DNA from: Acidimicrobiia bacterium
GTDB taxonomy: Bacteria; Actinomycetota; Acidimicrobiia; IMCC26256; PALSA-610
Length of the DNA: 38,260 nt
Reading direction: 5' to 3'
NCBI GenBank assembly: GCA_036271555.1
Contig: DATBAK010000054.1
Location: 1 to 38,260 of the forward strand
A model generated the notes under the pieces. That model ran no database searches and was not told the origin of the DNA. It saw only the letters and a program-made list of their open reading frames with translations. This document shows positions 19,143-26,395 of the stretch, piece after piece. The position numbers and the translations under genes were made by a program. The stretch's first letter is position 1; the number at the start of each line of letters is the position of its first letter.

Positions 19143-20630
19143 ATGAGCAAATTTGCGGATCACATGAGCGATGCGGACGCGCTCATGTGGAACATCGAGA
19201 AGGACCCGGTGCTGCGGTCGACAATTGTCGCCGTAGGGCTGCTCGACCGCGCGCCCGACTTCGAGCGTCTGCGCCGCCGGCTCGCGCGGGCGAGCATCGC
19301 GATCCCGCGCCTGCGCCAGCGCGTGCTCTCACCGCCGCTGCGGTTGGGTCCGCCCCGCTGGGCGCACGAGCCCAACTTCGACCTCGACTTCCACCTCCGT
19401 CGCGTGCGCGCGGTGAAGCCCGGCGACCACCGCCAGCTGCTCGAGCTGGTCGCGCCGATCGCCCAGGCGAGCTTCGACCGCGCCCGCCCGCTGTGGGAGC
19501 TCACCATCGTCGAGGGCCTCGCCGGTCACCGGGCCGCGGCGGTCATGAAGGTGCACCACTCGGTGACCGACGGCGTCGGCGGCATCGACCTGCTGACCCA
19601 GGTCGTCGACCTCGAGCGCGACGCCGCGGAGCCCGCGCCCTTGCCCGAGCCCGACGCCGCGACATCGCTCGGCGCGCTCTCGTTGCTGCGCGATTCGCTG
19701 CAGCACAGCGCGCGCCGCGGTCTCGGCATCTCGCGACGCGTCCCGGCGATGCTCTCGCAGGCCGTCGTCGAGACGGCGCGCGACCCGCTGCGCGCCGCGG
19801 CCGGCGCGCTCGACACCGGCCGTTCGATCGGGCGCATGCTCGCACCCGCGACGGCACCGATGTCGGACGTGCTCGGCGAGCGCAGCCTCGGCCGCCGGCT
19901 CGACACGTTCGAGGTCCCTCTCGACGACCTGAAGCGCGCGGCCAAGGCGGTCGACGGCAGCGTGAACGACGCGTTCGTCGCCGCGGTCGTCGGCGGCCTC
20001 ACGCGCTACCACTCGCACCACGGGTCGGCGATCGGCGAGCTCCGCATGACGCTGCCGATCAACCTGCGCACCGCCGAGCACGACTCGGGCGGCAACCAGT
20101 TCGCGCCGGCGCGCTTCCCGGTGCCCGCGTCGATCGAGGATCCTGCGCAGCGCATGCGCGCGATCGGCGCACTCGTACGGGGCTGGCGCGCGGAGCCCGC
20201 GCTGCGCATGACCTCGACGCTCGCGGGCGTGCTGAACCGCCTGCCGACCGCAACCTCGACCGCGCTGTTCGGCAGCATGCTCAAGTGCGTCGACTTCGTG
20301 ACGTCGAACGTGCCCGGCGCGCCGATCCCGGTGTTCCTCGCGGGAGCCGAGGTCGACGGCTTCTACGCCTTCGCACCCCCGTCGGGCGCGGCGCTCAACG
20401 TCACGCTCGTCTCGCACTGTGATCGCTGCTGCATCGGGATCGTCACCGACACCGCCGCGGTCGCCGACCCCGACGTCCTCGTCGACTCGCTGCGCTCCGG
20501 GTTCGACGAGGTCTGTGCTCTTGGGTCGGGCTCGCACGCTTCGCCCTCCTCCACGCCTCCCTCGACGAGTCGGGCGGGCCGCACGGCGACCCGCCCGCCG
20601 TCGCAAGACCGTTCGACGCGTTCTGAATGA
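19143..20630 (+). CDS. Wax ester synthase/acyl-CoA:diacylglycerol acyltransferase (WS/DGAT)
   Basis: 495 aa; HHSVTDGVGG active-site motif; last ~35 aa (GSGSHASPSSTPPSTSRAGRTATRPPSQDRSTRSE) are encoded by a repeat copy. Confidence 0.8.
   Translation: MSKFADHMSDADALMWNIEKDPVLRSTIVAVGLLDRAPDFERLRRRLARASIAIPRLRQRVLSPPLRLGPPRWAHEPNFDLDFHLRRVRAVKPGDHRQLLELVAPIAQASFDRARPLWELTIVEGLAGHRAAAVMKVHHSVTDGVGGIDLLTQVVDLERDAAEPAPLPEPDAATSLGALSLLRDSLQHSARRGLGISRRVPAMLSQAVVETARDPLRAAAGALDTGRSIGRMLAPATAPMSDVLGERSLGRRLDTFEVPLDDLKRAAKAVDGSVNDAFVAAVVGGLTRYHSHHGSAIGELRMTLPINLRTAEHDSGGNQFAPARFPVPASIEDPAQRMRAIGALVRGWRAEPALRMTSTLAGVLNRLPTATSTALFGSMLKCVDFVTSNVPGAPIPVFLAGAEVDGFYAFAPPSGAALNVTLVSHCDRCCIGIVTDTAAVADPDVLVDSLRSGFDEVCALGSGSHASPSSTPPSTSRAGRTATRPPSQDRSTRSE
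20523..20605 (+). repeat. Dispersed intergenic repeat, type II copy
   Basis: gggtcgggctcgcacgcttcgccctcctccacgcctcc...gtcgggcgggccgcacggcgacccgcccgccg inside the 3' end of the WS/DGAT ORF. Confidence 0.65.
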
Positions 20631-21334
20631 GACAGAACGAGGCACCGGTCGGGCGGCGGGTCTTCCTCGGGCTGCTCGGTGTCGGTGTCGCGGGAGTGCT
20701 CGTCGGCGCGCGGGTCGACGACTGGCTCGAGCGCACGCTCGGACCGGTCGAGGCGAGGGATCCGACGGGCCTCCTCTCGCTCCTGCCGATCGGTCGGTTC
20801 CGCATCTACTCGGTCGCGGCGAGCCTGCCGTCGCGCTCGCACGCCGACTACCGCCTGAAGGTCGGCGGTCTCGTCGAGCGGCCGCGAACGCTCACGTACG
20901 CGGACCTGCGCACGCGGCCCGCGACCTCGCTCACACGCGACTTCCAATGCGTCACGGGCTGGCGCGTGCACAACGTCGCGTGGACCGGCGTGAAGCTGCG
21001 CGACCTGCTCGACGACGCGGGCGTGAAGGCGAACGCGACCGCGGTGCGGTTCACGTCGTTCGACGGCGTCTACAGCGAGAGCCTCACGCTCGAGCAGGCC
21101 CGCCGCGACGACGTGCTCGTCGCGTACCGGCTCGAAGGATCCGACCTCTCGCGACAGCACGGCGGCCCGGTGCGGCTCGCGGTCACGCCGATGTACGGCT
21201 ACAAGTCGCTGAAGTGGCTCGACACGATCGAGGTCACCGCCGACGTCGAACCCGGCTATTGGGAGCACCGCGGCTACGACGTGAACGGCTGGGTCGGCCA
21301 TTCCAACGGCCGTTCGGACGATCCGACCGCATGA
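20627..21334 (+). CDS. Tat-exported molybdopterin-dependent oxidoreductase (sulfite oxidase/MsrP-like Mo-domain, short form)
   Basis: ATGA overlap with upstream stop; twin-arginine signal RRVFLGLLGVGVAG; Oxidored_molyb motifs FQCVTGW (Mo-ligand Cys), HGGPVRLAVTPMYGYKSLKWL. Confidence 0.75.
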   Translation: MRQNEAPVGRRVFLGLLGVGVAGVLVGARVDDWLERTLGPVEARDPTGLLSLLPIGRFRIYSVAASLPSRSHADYRLKVGGLVERPRTLTYADLRTRPATSLTRDFQCVTGWRVHNVAWTGVKLRDLLDDAGVKANATAVRFTSFDGVYSESLTLEQARRDDVLVAYRLEGSDLSRQHGGPVRLAVTPMYGYKSLKWLDTIEVTADVEPGYWEHRGYDVNGWVGHSNGRSDDPTA

Positions 21335-21400
21335 TGGTCGCCGCTCCTGACGCCTCAGCCCCCACCTCGGACGGTCCGCGTCGCGACCCGTCCGCCCCTG
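21335..21400 (+). repeat. Dispersed intergenic repeat, truncated type I copy
   Basis: ggtcgccgctcctgacgcctcagcc (deletion derivative of the 12072 copy) directly after the Mo-enzyme stop. Confidence 0.5.
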
Positions 21401-21410
21401 CGGGAACGTG

Positions 21411-22067
21411 ATGCCATCCGCCGAGATCGAGCGCTTCGACCGCGTCGAGCGGCTCGTGCACTGGACGACCGCCGCGCTCGTCGGTGTCCTCATCGCGACC
21501 GGCGCGTGCCTGTATCTCGGCGAGCTCGAGGCGATCGTCGGTCGGCGCGAGCTCGTGCGCACGATCCACGTGGTCGCGGGACTGAGCCTTCCGGTCCCGC
21601 TGATCCTCGGCCTGATCACGCGCGCGGGGCGCGCGCTCCGGCGCGACCTCGGCCGCCTCAATCGTTGGAGCATCGACGACAAGCGCTGGTGGCGGCGCGA
21701 CGCGCGCGCGGGAGTCGAGCTCGGCAAGTTCAACCCAGGGCAGAAGCTGAACGCGACGTTCCTCGCCGCCGCGCTCGTGCTGATGATCATGAGCGGCTCG
21801 ATCATGCGCTTCTTCGCGCCGTTCCCCGACTCGTGGCGCACCGGCGCGACCTCGGTGCACGACTGGTTCGCGCTCGGTATCGGCATCTCGGTGATCGGGC
21901 ACATCATGTTCGCGACGCGCGACCCGATCGCGATGCGCGCGATGCGTTCGGGGCCGGTACCGGAGGTCTGGGCGCGCCAGCACCGCCCGCGCTGGCACGC
22001 CGAGGTGGTCGGCGTCGCGGACCTCGGGGACCGAGATGGCGATCAGCCCCGACGGGCGGGTCGCTGA
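21411..22067 (+). CDS. Cytochrome b561-family di-heme membrane cytochrome b (partner of Mo-oxidoreductase)
   Basis: RVERLVHWTTAALVGVLIATG, HVVAGLSLPV, HDWFALGIGISVIGHIMFA His ligands in 4 TM helices; ATG 21411 (GTG 21408 also possible). Confidence 0.7.
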   Translation: MPSAEIERFDRVERLVHWTTAALVGVLIATGACLYLGELEAIVGRRELVRTIHVVAGLSLPVPLILGLITRAGRALRRDLGRLNRWSIDDKRWWRRDARAGVELGKFNPGQKLNATFLAAALVLMIMSGSIMRFFAPFPDSWRTGATSVHDWFALGIGISVIGHIMFATRDPIAMRAMRSGPVPEVWARQHRPRWHAEVVGVADLGDRDGDQPRRAGR

Positions 22068-23312: not shown

Positions 23313-24746
23313 GTGAGCGGCGCGCTCCCCGACGGATTGGTCGCAGTGGTCAAACGCGACTGCCCTACCTGCACGCTCGTCGCTCCTGTTCTGCGCGACC
23401 TCGCGGCGCGCGGCGCACTGCGCGTCTACACGCAGGACGACCCGTCGTTCCCGCCCGGCATCGACGCGTGTGACGACACCGAGCTCGAGGTGTCGTTCGC
23501 GCTCGCGATCGACACCGTGCCGACGCTGCTGCGCGTCGAGCGGGGTGCGGTCACGAATCGCACCGAGGGCTGGTCGCGCGCGCGGTGGGAGGCACTCACC
23601 GGCTTCGCGGGCCTCGGCCCCGACCTCCCCGACCTCCGACCCGGTTGCGGCTCGCGCACGCACGACCCCGACGTCGCCGACGCGCATGCGATCGCGACGA
23701 TGGCGCCCCGGCTGCAGGCGCGTCCGGTCGAGCTCGGCGCCGCCGAGGACGACCAGGAAGCGATGTTCGCCCGGGGCTGGACCGACGGCCTTCCGGTCGT
23801 CCCGCCGACGGTCGCCCGCGTCGCGCGCATGCTCGCGGGCACGACGCGCGCGCCGGACGACATCGTCACGGTCGTGCCGCCCGACCTCGTCGAGTGCACG
23901 GTCGAGAAGGTCGCGATCAACGCGGTGCTCGCGGGCTGCCGACCCGAGTACCTGCCGGTGGTGCTGGCCGCGGTCGAGGCTGCGTGCACCGATCAGTTCA
24001 ACGCGCACGGGCTGCTCGCGACGACGTGGTTCTCGGGCCCGCTCGTGATCGTCAACGGTCCGATCGCGCGCGCGATCGGGATGAACTCCGGCGGCAACGC
24101 GCTCGGTCAGGGCAACCGCGCGAACGCGACGATCGGACGCGCGCTGCAACTCGTCGTCCGCAACGTCGGCGGTGGCCGTCCCGGCGAAGTCGACCGCGCG
24201 ACGCTCGGCAACCCCGGCAAGTACACGTTCTGCTTCGCCGAGGACGAGGCGGGTTCGCCGTGGGAGTCGCTCGCGGTCGAGCGCGGTATCGCGCGCGGAC
24301 GCTCGGCCGTCACGCTGTTCGCTGCGGAAGGCGTGCGCGGCGTCGTCGACCAGCTGTCGCGTGAGCCCGAGTCGCTCGCGCGCAGCTTCGCGGCCTGCCT
24401 GCGCACCGTCGCGCACCCGAAGCTCGCGATGGTGTGGGACGCGGTGCTCGTCGTCTCACCCGAGCACGCACGCGTCTTTCGCGAGGCAGGCTGGTCGAAG
24501 GCGCGTCTGCGGGAGGCCCTGAGCGCCGAGCTCCTGCTCGCGGGCGACGACATCGTCGCGGGCGCGCACGGCATCGCCGAGGGACTGCCGGCCGGCTTCG
24601 CGGGAACGTCGATCCCGAAGTTCCGCGATGGCGGGCTGCTCATCGTCCACGCCGGTGGCACCGCGGGCATGTTCTCGGCCATCATCGGCGGGTGGGCGAG
24701 CGGCGCGGTCGGGAGTGAGCCAGTGACCCGGGAGGTCGGTACGTGA
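23313..24746 (+). CDS. Thioredoxin-like (CPTC) N-domain fused to a large uncharacterized domain; candidate partner of UGSC protein
   Basis: 477 aa; N-terminal VAVVKRDCPTCTLVAPVL...IDTVPTLLRV thioredoxin-fold CxxC; remainder has normal composition but no motif I can name; GGGAGG RBS for downstream gene inside its 3' end; stop overlaps downstream GTG (GTGA). Confidence 0.55.
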   Translation: MSGALPDGLVAVVKRDCPTCTLVAPVLRDLAARGALRVYTQDDPSFPPGIDACDDTELEVSFALAIDTVPTLLRVERGAVTNRTEGWSRARWEALTGFAGLGPDLPDLRPGCGSRTHDPDVADAHAIATMAPRLQARPVELGAAEDDQEAMFARGWTDGLPVVPPTVARVARMLAGTTRAPDDIVTVVPPDLVECTVEKVAINAVLAGCRPEYLPVVLAAVEAACTDQFNAHGLLATTWFSGPLVIVNGPIARAIGMNSGGNALGQGNRANATIGRALQLVVRNVGGGRPGEVDRATLGNPGKYTFCFAEDEAGSPWESLAVERGIARGRSAVTLFAAEGVRGVVDQLSREPESLARSFAACLRTVAHPKLAMVWDAVLVVSPEHARVFREAGWSKARLREALSAELLLAGDDIVAGAHGIAEGLPAGFAGTSIPKFRDGGLLIVHAGGTAGMFSAIIGGWASGAVGSEPVTREVGT

Positions 24747-25279
24747 CCACGACGACCGTCGCGTCCGACGCCCGCGTGCTGCTCGATCCCACGTCGGAAC
24801 GGGCCCCGGCGGCGCGCGAGCGCGCGGCGCGGCCCGCGTCGATCGAGGGCGCGACCGTCGGCCTGCTCGACATCAGCAAGCCGCGCGGCAAGGTGTTCCT
24901 CGATCGCGTCGAGGAGCTGCTCGTCGCGCGCGGTCTGAAGGTCGAGCGCTACAGCAAGCCGACGTTCACGAAGCCTGCGCCCGCGGATCTACGGCACGAG
25001 ATCGCGACGAAGTGCGACCTCGTGATCGAAGCACTCGCCGACTGAGGATCGTGCACGTCGTGCAGTGTGCACGACACCGTGAACCTCGAGGCCGCCGGTG
25101 TGCCGATGGTGTTCGTCGCGTCGACCGAGTTCGTCGCGGCCGCCGACGCGCAGTCGCGCGCGCTCGGCGCCGACCCCGCGCGTGTCTTCGTCGCGCATCC
25201 GATCCAGGATCGAACCGACGACGAGCTGCGCGCGCTGGCCGACGCCGCGATCGACGACCTCGTCGCCGCGCTGCGCTGA
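24743..25279 (+). CDS. UGSC-motif selenoprotein candidate (178 aa with Sec at codon 101; in-frame TGA 25043-25045)
   Basis: ORF 24743..25045 ends ...VIEALAD-TGA and continues in the same frame as GSCTSCSVHDTVNLEAAG...DDLVAALR to TGA 25277; the 25067..25279 track ORF is this same frame; U-G-S-C followed by TSC; stable hairpin 11 nt after the TGA. Confidence 0.65.
25057..25075 (+). promoter_or_regulatory. SECIS-like stem-loop downstream of in-frame TGA
   Basis: GTCGTGCA-GTG-TGCACGAC, perfect 8-bp stem/3-nt loop starting 11 nt after TGA; local GTGCAC repeats allow alternative extended folds; resembles apical UGCA..UGCA stem of E. coli fdhF SECIS. Confidence 0.45.
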
Positions 25280-25299: not shown

Positions 25300-26277
25300 T
25301 CACTTCGACGCGTCGGCGATCGAGAACGCGCCGACGTTCGTGAAGCTCAGGCTCGTCACTCCCGACGCGCAGTCGCCGGTGGTCGGCGTCGCGTGCAGAA
25401 CCACCTCGAGAGTCGCGCCGGCGTCGGCGCCACTCGTGATCACGCCATGGAGACTGAGCTCGTAGGGATCGTCGCGGTTGTTCGTCGACGCGAGGTGCGC
25501 GCGCTTCAAGATCGACACGAAGTGGTTCGACCAGTCGATCTCGAGCATCCCGAAGAACCGCTGTTGCTTGCCGGGTGGGCACGTCACCGACGACGCATCG
25601 AGCGCGCCGATCACCGTGGCGGCGGGCGCGGTGTCGGCGGCCTGACAACCCGACACCTGGAACGATTCGAAGTGCAGGTGCTGGGCCGCGGCGCCGGCAA
25701 CGAGCCCGGGGCTGACCGTCGCGGACGCGGCGACGTCGTCGCAGCTCGCGTACGGGCCGCCGATCGTCATCGCGTTCGTGTTGTGCATCGTGATCGCGCC
25801 GACTCCGGCGCTGCAGTCACCGGTCTTGGGCACGAGGTCGAGGCGCACGCGCAGTGTCGCCCCCGTCTGGCTGCCACCGGTGACGCGACCGTCGAGCCGC
25901 ACTTCGAACCGGTCGTCGGGATTGCCGGTCGACGCGACGCGGGCGGCCCGGAGGTACGAGGTCGCGCCGTTGTTCCAGTCGATCTGCAAGGAGCCGCGCA
26001 GCCGGTCGGTCGGCGCGAGCGGACACGAAGCGGACGGGCTCGTCAGCGTTCCCGTTGCGGTCGCGGCCGCGCCGCCGACGTGGTCGCACTTCGAGACGCG
26101 GAACGTGTGCAGGTGGAGCTCGACGGGGCCGGCCGTCGCCTGCCACTTCGGCGTGAGCTGCGCCGCGCCGACGACCGACTTGCAGCGGGTCGGCGGGTTC
26201 GCAACCGATCCCGCGGGCGCGGCCGCGAGCGCCAACGCCGCGGTCGCCAGCATCGCCACGAGCCCGGTCCTCGCCAC
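25300..26277 (-). CDS. Secreted protein with internal tandem duplication of a ~140-aa 4-Cys domain (unknown function)
   Basis: Signal peptide LVAMLATAALALAAAPAGSVA; two repeats each with VELHLHTF/QHLHFESF, LQIDWNNGATSYL/LEIDWSNHFVSIL, GATLRV/GATLEV and 4 Cys; start GTG 26277 preferred (ATG 26331 lies inside a repeat copy). Confidence 0.55.
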   Translation of the reverse strand: MARTGLVAMLATAALALAAAPAGSVANPPTRCKSVVGAAQLTPKWQATAGPVELHLHTFRVSKCDHVGGAAATATGTLTSPSASCPLAPTDRLRGSLQIDWNNGATSYLRAARVASTGNPDDRFEVRLDGRVTGGSQTGATLRVRLDLVPKTGDCSAGVGAITMHNTNAMTIGGPYASCDDVAASATVSPGLVAGAAAQHLHFESFQVSGCQAADTAPAATVIGALDASSVTCPPGKQQRFFGMLEIDWSNHFVSILKRAHLASTNNRDDPYELSLHGVITSGADAGATLEVVLHATPTTGDCASGVTSLSFTNVGAFSIADASK

Positions 26278-26292
26278 CCGCCCGGTGTTCGA

Positions 26293-26395
26293 TGGTCGGG
26301 CTCGCACGCTTCGCCCTCCTCGTCGCCTCAACCGTCGCGTCCTACGCGAGCGAGCGTAGGGACCACCACGCTAAGTGGCGTCGGAGCGTGAGGCC
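26293..26395 (+). repeat. Dispersed intergenic repeat, type II copy with internal hairpin CCTACGC-GAGCGA-GCGTAGG
   Basis: tggtcgggctcgcacgcttcgccctcctcgtcgcctcaa...; hairpin at 26341-26360. Confidence 0.65.

Follow-up and report, generated by a model that had tools for sequence, protein, structure and literature searches.

The stretch of DNA analysed here, referred to below as the window, is the 38,260-nucleotide contig DATBAK010000054.1 (positions 1 to 38,260 of the forward strand) of the GenBank assembly GCA_036271555.1, which derives from an Acidimicrobiia bacterium. At positions 24743-25279 of its plus strand, a reading frame that opens at a GTG codon meets an in-frame TGA after 100 codons and continues beyond it to a second TGA. 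We conclude with high confidence that these positions hold one gene for a 178-residue selenoprotein of the UGSC family, in which the internal TGA is decoded as selenocysteine (Sec). The locus is an ordinary member of an already known selenoprotein family and not a new kind of selenoprotein. The features on which the argument depends are the following.

23313..24746, plus strand: partner gene up477 (477 aa), with an N-terminal thioredoxin-fold domain and a C-terminal domain of about 340 aa
24730..24735, plus strand: Shine-Dalgarno-like GGGAGG, 7 nt 5′ of the GTG start, read from the sequence
24743-45, plus strand: GTG start of the selenoprotein gene, overlapping the stop TGA 24744-46 of the partner gene and forming GTGA
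24743..25279, plus strand: coding sequence of the UGSC-family selenoprotein, 178 codons including Sec101, plus stop
25043..25045, plus strand: in-frame UGA assigned to Sec, residue 101; TGA in 80 of 80 homologous loci, cysteine (Cys) in natural homologs
25043..25063, plus strand: U-G-S-C-T-S-C (UxxCxxC), putative selenol/thiol redox centre, based on the sequence, the 80 of 80 loci, the structural model of the homolog P0121 and the UxxCxxC of GrdB
25057..25075, plus strand: selenocysteine insertion sequence (SECIS) hairpin, 5′-GUCGUGCA-GUG-UGCACGAC-3′, 8 bp with a 3-nt GUG loop, starting 11 nt after the UGA
25277..25279, plus strand: true stop TGA of the selenoprotein gene; alignments to hidden Markov models (HMMs) end at residues 177-178

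The open reading frame (ORF) from GTG 24743 runs to ...KCDLVIEALAD immediately before TGA 25043-45; the next codons in the same frame, GGA TCG TGC ACG TCG TGC, encode G-S-C-T-S-C, and 77 further codons are open between this TGA and TGA 25277-79. The initial annotation of this DNA, which was made from its letters, had described this frame, its two TGA codons and the GSC-TSC sequence, together with a GTGA overlap and a GGGAGG ribosome-binding site, and all of these readings were exact, the overlap being found at 24743-46 and the GGGAGG at 24730-35. The annotation had also held that the downstream stretch is genuinely coding and that an ordinary stop at the first TGA is unlikely; both statements are upheld by the results given below. 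Because the window has a GC content of 71%, with spurious long ORFs in all six frames, an open frame 3′ of the TGA is no proof by itself. A separate ORF at 25067..25279 is also listed among the ORFs of the window. The GC content at third codon positions (GC3) is 0.88 and 0.90 in the two halves of the selenoprotein ORF, and thus the coding signature is equal on both sides of the TGA. Our acceptance of the downstream frame therefore depends on three observations taken together, namely that each half matches the UGSC models, that both halves share one GC3 signature, and that all 80 homologous loci have TGA at this codon. Other same-frame pairs of ORFs split by a stop in the window (17916/19035, 32007/30456 and 36346/34105) join unrelated families and were rejected as Sec candidates.

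Membership in the UGSC family had been proposed from the motif, and HMM comparisons of the 178-residue read-through product, scored with U replaced by C, agree with the proposal. The product scores 160.1 bits against NF041046, "UGSC family (seleno)protein" (curated cutoff 125; profile positions 2-147 of 147), and 158.7 bits against Pfam PF24696 (UGSC; cutoff 25), and both alignments cross the TGA position. Taken separately, the N-terminal 100 aa match the UGSC model at profile positions 2-68 (E = 2.4e-16) and the C-terminal 77 aa match it at positions 70-147 (E = 3.4e-22). The U/C-G-S-C motif occupies a conserved position of the profile; it is written TGA-GGA-TCG-TGC in the window, recurs in the 80 of 80 loci and reads CGSC in the Cys forms. 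An exhaustive profile search with UGSC returned 2474 clusters at 50% identity, and a sequence-profile search of the PDB returned no match. A UGSC-containing protein was listed as a selenoprotein family in 2007 (Zhang & Gladyshev, Nucleic Acids Research; PMC1976440). In the Global Ocean Sampling (GOS) metagenomes, 255 Sec forms of the family were counted vs 21 Cys forms (PMC2398784), and the present locus agrees with the family both in this predominance of Sec forms and in its aquatic or environmental actinobacterial origin, as it does in its full-length matches above the cutoffs with U-G-S-C at the expected position.

The TGA codon is conserved among relatives. A scan of one genome per species yielded more than 400 relatives, of which the best 80 were used; these loci are 65-80% identical to the query and almost all belong to metagenome-assembled genomes of Acidimicrobiia. 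In each of the best 80, the tblastn match runs through the TGA position, the homologous codon is TGA (80 of 80), the flanks read ...EALAD and GSC(T/A/V)(S/T)CSVHD..., and the protein is conserved on both sides. Most relatives in the databases are stubs of 94-100 aa that end in ...ALAD, because gene callers stop at the TGA. In full-length entries, such as P0121, P0123, P0143, P0149 and P0163, Cys stands at the Sec position; Cys forms make up approximately 37 of the 150 best representatives, and their TGT and TGC codons were verified in the DNA. The homologs therefore present one frame, with either TGA or a Cys codon at this position, and not two unrelated genes.

Several database entries depart from this pattern. 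In some full-length entries the Sec position is occupied by W, R or G (P0122, P0124, P0125, P0133, P0135, P0151 and P0340). The W entries probably arise from translation with table 4 (TGA = Trp) in metagenome pipelines, and the R and G entries are most plausibly one-base variants (CGA/AGA and GGA). The locus L081 (947-1486), which encodes the 72% identical protein P0121, has TGT in place of TGA and retains a perfect hairpin and all of the frozen codons described below; this combination suggests that Sec was converted to Cys very recently or that the one metagenome contig concerned contains a sequencing error. In addition, the Sec forms keep UGSCxxC, whereas CGSCxxW, or another residue in place of the third Cys, is found in many Cys forms, among them every fusion protein discussed below (representatives P0241-P0390), and the third Cys of UxxCxxC may thus be specific to the Sec subfamily.

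A constrained hairpin lies just 3′ of the UGA, at 25057-25075, where a bacterial SECIS element was to be sought. It is present in all 81 aligned sequences, with 99.2% of the alignment cells paired compared with no more than 61% for controls slid along the alignment. Six of its pairs are invariant, and the pair T22-A38 is unpaired only in 5 sequences, through a Ser-to-Thr change. The pair at alignment columns 24-36 covaries (GC 66, AU 8, GU 4, mismatch 0). The codons from +4 to +10 are frozen at ACG (76/76), TGC (81/81), AGT (81/81), GTG (80/80) and GAC (81/81), and AGT is a rare Ser codon at the local GC3, yet it is found in every sequence. Variation among the hairpin codons is limited to TCG/TCA at +5 and CAC/CAT at +9, which form the two sides of the covarying pair. 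The codon entropy is approximately 0 bits at ACG, TGC, AGT, GTG and GAC vs 1.3-1.9 bits at comparably conserved residues elsewhere in the gene, and within the gene this synonymous freezing is confined to the hairpin. In distant Cys-form genes (L082 and L083/L084), the codons are replaced (ACT, TCT/TCC, GCC/GCG, ATT/ATC and GAT) and the hairpin is absent. As judged from this pattern of substitutions, the hairpin is under selection at the RNA level, and we regard it as a SECIS validated comparatively for this clade, which the catalogue entry of the family did not include.

The minimal SECIS of the Escherichia coli gene fdhF is reportedly a 17-nt upper stem-loop at a distance of 11 nt from the UGA, with a loop whose G and U contact SelB (Liu et al. 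1998; Huttenhofer & Bock 1996). In comparison with that element, the hairpin at 25057-25075 likewise lies within the coding sequence, starts 11 nt after the UGA and carries G and U in its loop. The two elements differ in that their sequences are unrelated, the loop measures 3 nt here vs 4-6 nt, the upper stem here lacks a bulged U, and no Rfam model exists for it.

The following points weigh against the interpretation of this hairpin and of the UGA. The minimum free energy of the hairpin, -24.2 kcal/mol, is unremarkable in its GC-rich context (shuffle mean -22.5, z = -0.58). Only 1 of the 8 pairs provides covariation, and its A-U state, seen in 8 sequences, has probably arisen independently only a few times. 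The conservation of the hairpin acts in part at the protein level, because its nucleotides also encode very conserved residues. No Rfam family matched at the gathering thresholds, and a relaxed scan returned only chance hits. An extended lower stem (UGAGG/CCUCG and UCGUG/CCGUGA) received no consensus support from RNAalifold, its register shifting between loci, and it was rejected; only the upper hairpin is claimed as the SECIS. Finally, profile scans of the 38-kb window detected no sel gene, nor does the window contain a tRNA. We therefore infer Sec decoding in the source genome from its relatives.

Among the relatives, selA, selB and tRNA-Sec are present, and some loci have them next to the UGSC module. 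In 7 of the 80 loci, ARAGORN identified a tRNA-SeC (anticodon TCA) that always precedes the partner gene closely and is transcribed away from it; this tRNA is itself preceded by two genes, which score above the cutoffs for selA (392-396 bits vs 268) and selB (289-320 bits vs 242). The tRNA lies on the strand opposite the partner gene, approximately 50-150 nt from the start of that gene. These loci are L017 (1384-4487), L060 (1260-4474) and L077 (576-3758), as well as L027, L031, L037 and L050, and in such Ilumatobacteraceae-like genomes the Sec machinery and the selenoprotein module form one neighbourhood. A complete Sec machinery has also been reported in the acidimicrobial order Actinomarinales (bioRxiv 10.64898/2026.04.03.716425).

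The upstream gene up477 accompanies the selenoprotein gene with a regularity that none of its other neighbours approaches. It immediately precedes UGSC in all 80 loci, whereas the other neighbours in the window recur in at most 12 of 80; the start and stop codons overlap as NTGA (ATGA, GTGA or TTGA) in 77 of the 80, mostly 90-100 codons before the Sec codon, and the Cys-form loci show the same arrangement. The initial annotation had called the upstream product thioredoxin-like, and this description suits its N-terminal domain (approximately residues 1-135), which combines a thioredoxin fold with a CxxC at the active-site position (C17-P-T-C20, nt 23361-23372), the two properties by which the thioredoxin family is recognised. 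The protein as a whole has no Pfam or NCBIfam match, and its C-terminal segment of approximately 340 residues has no detectable structural or sequence relative among family models or in the PDB. At least 8000 homologs exist, and they are named only "hypothetical" or "thioredoxin family protein".

Residues ~115-406 of up477 share 42-47% identity with the C-terminal portion of a set of proteins that begin with a Cys-form UGSC domain. Fusions of UGSC with the partner domain were found in P0327, P0348, P0375, P0382, P0384 and P0386, and they constitute Rosetta-stone evidence for a physical partnership between up477 and UGSC. Fusions of UGSC with a domain called Unknown_1 were mentioned for the family in 2008 (PMC2398784), and the C-terminal domain of up477 is probably the Unknown_1 of Zhang & Gladyshev (PLoS Genetics, 2008). 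The association with Unknown_1 is thus shared with the family, in which it is known as fusions; the difference, which is not an essential one, is that here the Unknown_1 domain belongs to a distinct protein, which is encoded by the translationally coupled upstream gene and also bears a thioredoxin domain. A further apparent up477-UGSC fusion, the 651-aa P0243, reads as a frameshifted, arginine-rich mistranslation and was discarded. The C-terminal domain (window 23655-24743, residues ~115-477) carries the motifs GWxDGLPxVPPT, AINAVMAGCRPEY, NATIGRALRL and GxPGKF, and it contains a conserved Cys209 within an AGCRPEY motif. The only non-thioredoxin Foldseek hits of the up477 model were to the Leishmania class I fumarate hydratase (5l2r and 6unz; probability ~0.5, TM score ~0.22, more than 320 aligned columns), and these are too weak to interpret.

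The fold of the UGSC protein was considered by means of an AlphaFold2 prediction for the natural Cys homolog P0121, which is 72% identical (predicted local distance difference test score, 90.4; predicted TM score, 0.84). The model contains five alternating strand-helix units, and its Foldseek neighbours in the PDB, at TM scores of ~0.45-0.5, comprise flavodoxins, receiver domains of the CheY type, DHH domains of RecJ and comparable alpha/beta folds of three layers; the same search yielded no thioredoxin-fold neighbour and no close solved relative. The fold is therefore predicted to be flavodoxin-like and not thioredoxin-like, in contradiction to the "likely Trx-like fold" stated for the family in 2008 (PMC2398784). 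In the model, Cys95, the equivalent of the Sec, follows strand 87-93, and Cys98 opens helix 98-111, a placement that corresponds to the usual geometry of a nucleophile and a resolving cysteine. The initial annotation had likened the UxxCxxC to a redox-active CxxC. The putative redox motif resembles that of GrdB, and the protein that carries it does not appear to be of the thioredoxin type, given its predicted fold.

Apart from UGSC, the only models that recur in members of the family are those of the selenoprotein B components GrdB, GrdF and GrdH, always at the Sec region and with a best E-value of 4.4e-4. GrdB carries UxxCxxC, and PrdB is its UxxC homolog (PMC13188914). The scores of the UGSC protein are 16 bits vs the required 602 for TIGR01917 and 11.9 vs 65 for TIGR01918, which places it outside the GrdB/PrdB families, and the Pfam family GRDB (PF07355) was not matched by any of 15 UGSC members, even at E-values up to 10. 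Because the scores are far below the cutoffs and PF07355 is not matched, the likeness to GrdB should be understood as a similarity in how the protein may work and not as membership. This likeness to GrdB, GrdF, GrdH and PrdB (TIGR01917, TIGR01918 and PF07355) comprises the UxxCxxC (UxxC) Sec motif, a weak but recurrent local similarity centred on the Sec (E = 4e-4 to 8e-2) and, as proposed for UGSC, a small Sec subunit that works with a larger partner and a thioredoxin-type reductant. The differences are also considerable: the UGSC protein has 178 aa vs about 240-436, the pyruvoyl proproteins GrdE and PrdA show no similarity to up477, no grdA, grdC or prdC lies near UGSC, and GrdB and PrdB belong to amino-acid-fermenting anaerobes vs the aerobic Acidimicrobiia that host UGSC.

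According to established bacterial Sec biology, SelB-GTP-Sec-tRNA(Sec) would bind the hairpin on the translating mRNA and deliver Sec to the UGA, after which the ribosome would proceed to the real stop at 25277-79. For the function of the protein, we tentatively propose the following model. Sec101 and Cys104 would form a redox pair that cycles between the selenol/thiol and the selenenylsulfide during action on a substrate. UGSC would be the small, catalytic member of a complex of two proteins, the other being the coupled product of up477, whose unannotated domain may provide the substrate site and whose thioredoxin domain, with its CPTC, may re-reduce the selenenylsulfide; the role of UGSC would thus be analogous to that of the selenoprotein B subunits GrdB and PrdB of the glycine and D-proline reductases. 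We judge this model, taken as a whole, to be somewhat short of an even chance. Four considerations count against it: the similarity to GrdB is far below the cutoff, as described above; UGSC proteins are known from bioinformatic prediction only, and reviews of 2022 and 2026 still give their function as unknown (PMC9312934, PMC13188914); the structure is a prediction for a Cys homolog and not for the Sec protein; and the assignment of the substrate site to the up477 domain is conjecture because that domain has no detectable relative.

A wider hypothesis, which we consider more doubtful still, is that the Trx-Unknown_1 protein and UGSC together form an uncharacterised two-component selenoenzyme that would be a distant, aerobic-lineage analogue of the B components of glycine and proline reductase, with a built-in thioredoxin recycling domain, and that it would be a principal client keeping selA-selB-selC in Acidimicrobiia. 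If this were true, the catalytic domain of the partner, which has at least 8000 homologs and no relative in Pfam, NCBIfam or the PDB, would define a new enzyme family.

The competing explanation that survives best concerns function and not decoding. UGSC may be a free-standing thiol/selenol oxidoreductase, that is, an antioxidant protein of the thioredoxin or peroxiredoxin type, and not a dedicated subunit that works with up477. Zhang & Gladyshev (2008; PMC2398784) grouped UGSC with redox selenoproteins of the thioredoxin fold, UxxC is a generic redox motif, a defence against oxidative stress is plausible in aerobic aquatic hosts, and the similarity to GrdB is below every cutoff. The UxxC and CxxU selenoproteins of the thioredoxin fold (Trx-, Prx-, SelW- and DsbA-like) do resemble UGSC in the UxxC motif, in its location where a strand end leads into the N-terminus of a helix, and in their abundance in aquatic metagenomes. 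However, the topology predicted for UGSC consists of five beta-alpha units and is flavodoxin/Rossmann-like, without a thioredoxin neighbour, and the thioredoxin fold of this system is found on up477 and not on UGSC. Moreover, the only recurrent non-UGSC models are those of selenoprotein B, and up477 adjoins UGSC in every one of the 80 loci, the two genes mostly overlapping by 4 nt, and several lineages have the two fused. Because of this adjacency, the overlap and the fusions, we prefer an obligate two-component system and consider a stand-alone redoxin unlikely, if still worthy of attention.

The remaining explanations dispute the selenoprotein itself, and all of them are very improbable. According to the first, TGA 25043 is an ordinary stop, so that the locus encodes a 100-aa protein followed either by a separate small gene from GTG 25067 or by a non-coding frame kept open by GC content. 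Most database entries are annotated in this manner, with products of 94-100 aa; TGA is the usual stop codon in the window; and at 71% GC spurious ORFs of considerable length arise often. Because Sec is as a rule inserted inefficiently, some truncated product is probably made as well. However, the 77 downstream residues match the C-terminal half of UGSC contiguously with the N-terminal half, the frame and the junction are identical in the 80 loci, and the natural Cys forms and fusions are single polypeptides. Furthermore, GTG 25067, which lacks a ribosome-binding site of its own, is merely the Val codon of the hairpin loop, and the synonymous freezing is found only in the hairpin. We therefore retain the reading of 24743-25279 as one gene and give an ordinary stop scarcely any weight.

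An equally slight chance attaches to the explanation that the UGA is recoded as an amino acid other than Sec, either by near-cognate read-through (Trp, Cys or Arg) or under a reassigned genetic code. The W, R or G found at this position in some database translations and the lack of Sec machinery within the 38-kb window of the source genome could be cited in its favour. The W calls, however, are best explained by translation with table 4, and the hairpin that follows the UGA agrees in its position and its loop with what an element that binds SelB should show. TGA is not reassigned, because most genes of the window end in it, and this fact, together with the presence of selA, selB and tRNA(UCA)-Sec adjoining the module in relatives, makes read-through by a non-Sec tRNA or a reassigned code unlikely in comparison with decoding as Sec.

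The least probable explanation, a pseudogene or sequencing error in which a Cys-form UGSC gene (TGC or TGT) of the source genome has suffered a nonsense change, can draw on the fact that TGA is one substitution from either codon and on the TGT that the close relative L081 (P0121) has in an otherwise Sec-type context, but 80 independent assemblies from different species all have TGA, the downstream half is still conserved as protein and keeps its full coding signature, the SECIS hairpin is undamaged, and the TGT of L081, with the hairpin still present, is if anything the derived or erroneous state.

The recognition of the Sec codon has practical consequences. Standard gene callers cut the UGSC gene to a 100-aa stub, whereas recognition of the codon restores the protein of 178 aa and also marks the genome as a user of selenocysteine. 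Few selenoprotein families are as abundant in aquatic metagenomes as UGSC (PMC2398784), and its function is still unassigned after almost 20 years; the partner, the fusions, the fold, the UxxCxxC motif and the adjacency of selA-selB-selC provide experimental handles. What the present analysis adds to the catalogue is a SECIS validated for the clade by comparative data, an obligate Trx-Unknown_1 partner, the adjacency of selA-selB-selC in some genomes and a predicted fold that is not that of thioredoxin.

A relaxed Rfam scan placed the small RNA h2cR on the minus strand at 24966-25087, opposite the Sec codon and the hairpin (23.4 bits vs a gathering threshold of 70, E = 0.013); this match is below the threshold and lies in GC-rich palindromic sequence, and we judged it to be due to chance. 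Downstream, a convergent ORF of 343 codons (25300-26331, minus strand), with a good coding signature (GC3 0.89), lies 21 nt beyond the selenoprotein stop. Neither Pfam nor NCBIfam has a family that it matches, and none of the 80 relative loci contains a homolog of it. The other genes of the window serve housekeeping or lipid metabolism and include ksgA, metG, ychF, serC, WS/DGAT and the genes of an MsrP-like molybdoenzyme and a cytochrome b. The last two are located at 20627-22067 on the plus strand, where a small molybdopterin oxidoreductase (PF00174; weakly MsrP/SorA/SoxC-like) is followed by a membrane protein resembling cytochrome b561/FdnI. This MsrPQ-like pair shortly precedes serC and the selenoprotein module, and pair and module occur together in only 8 of the 80 relatives.

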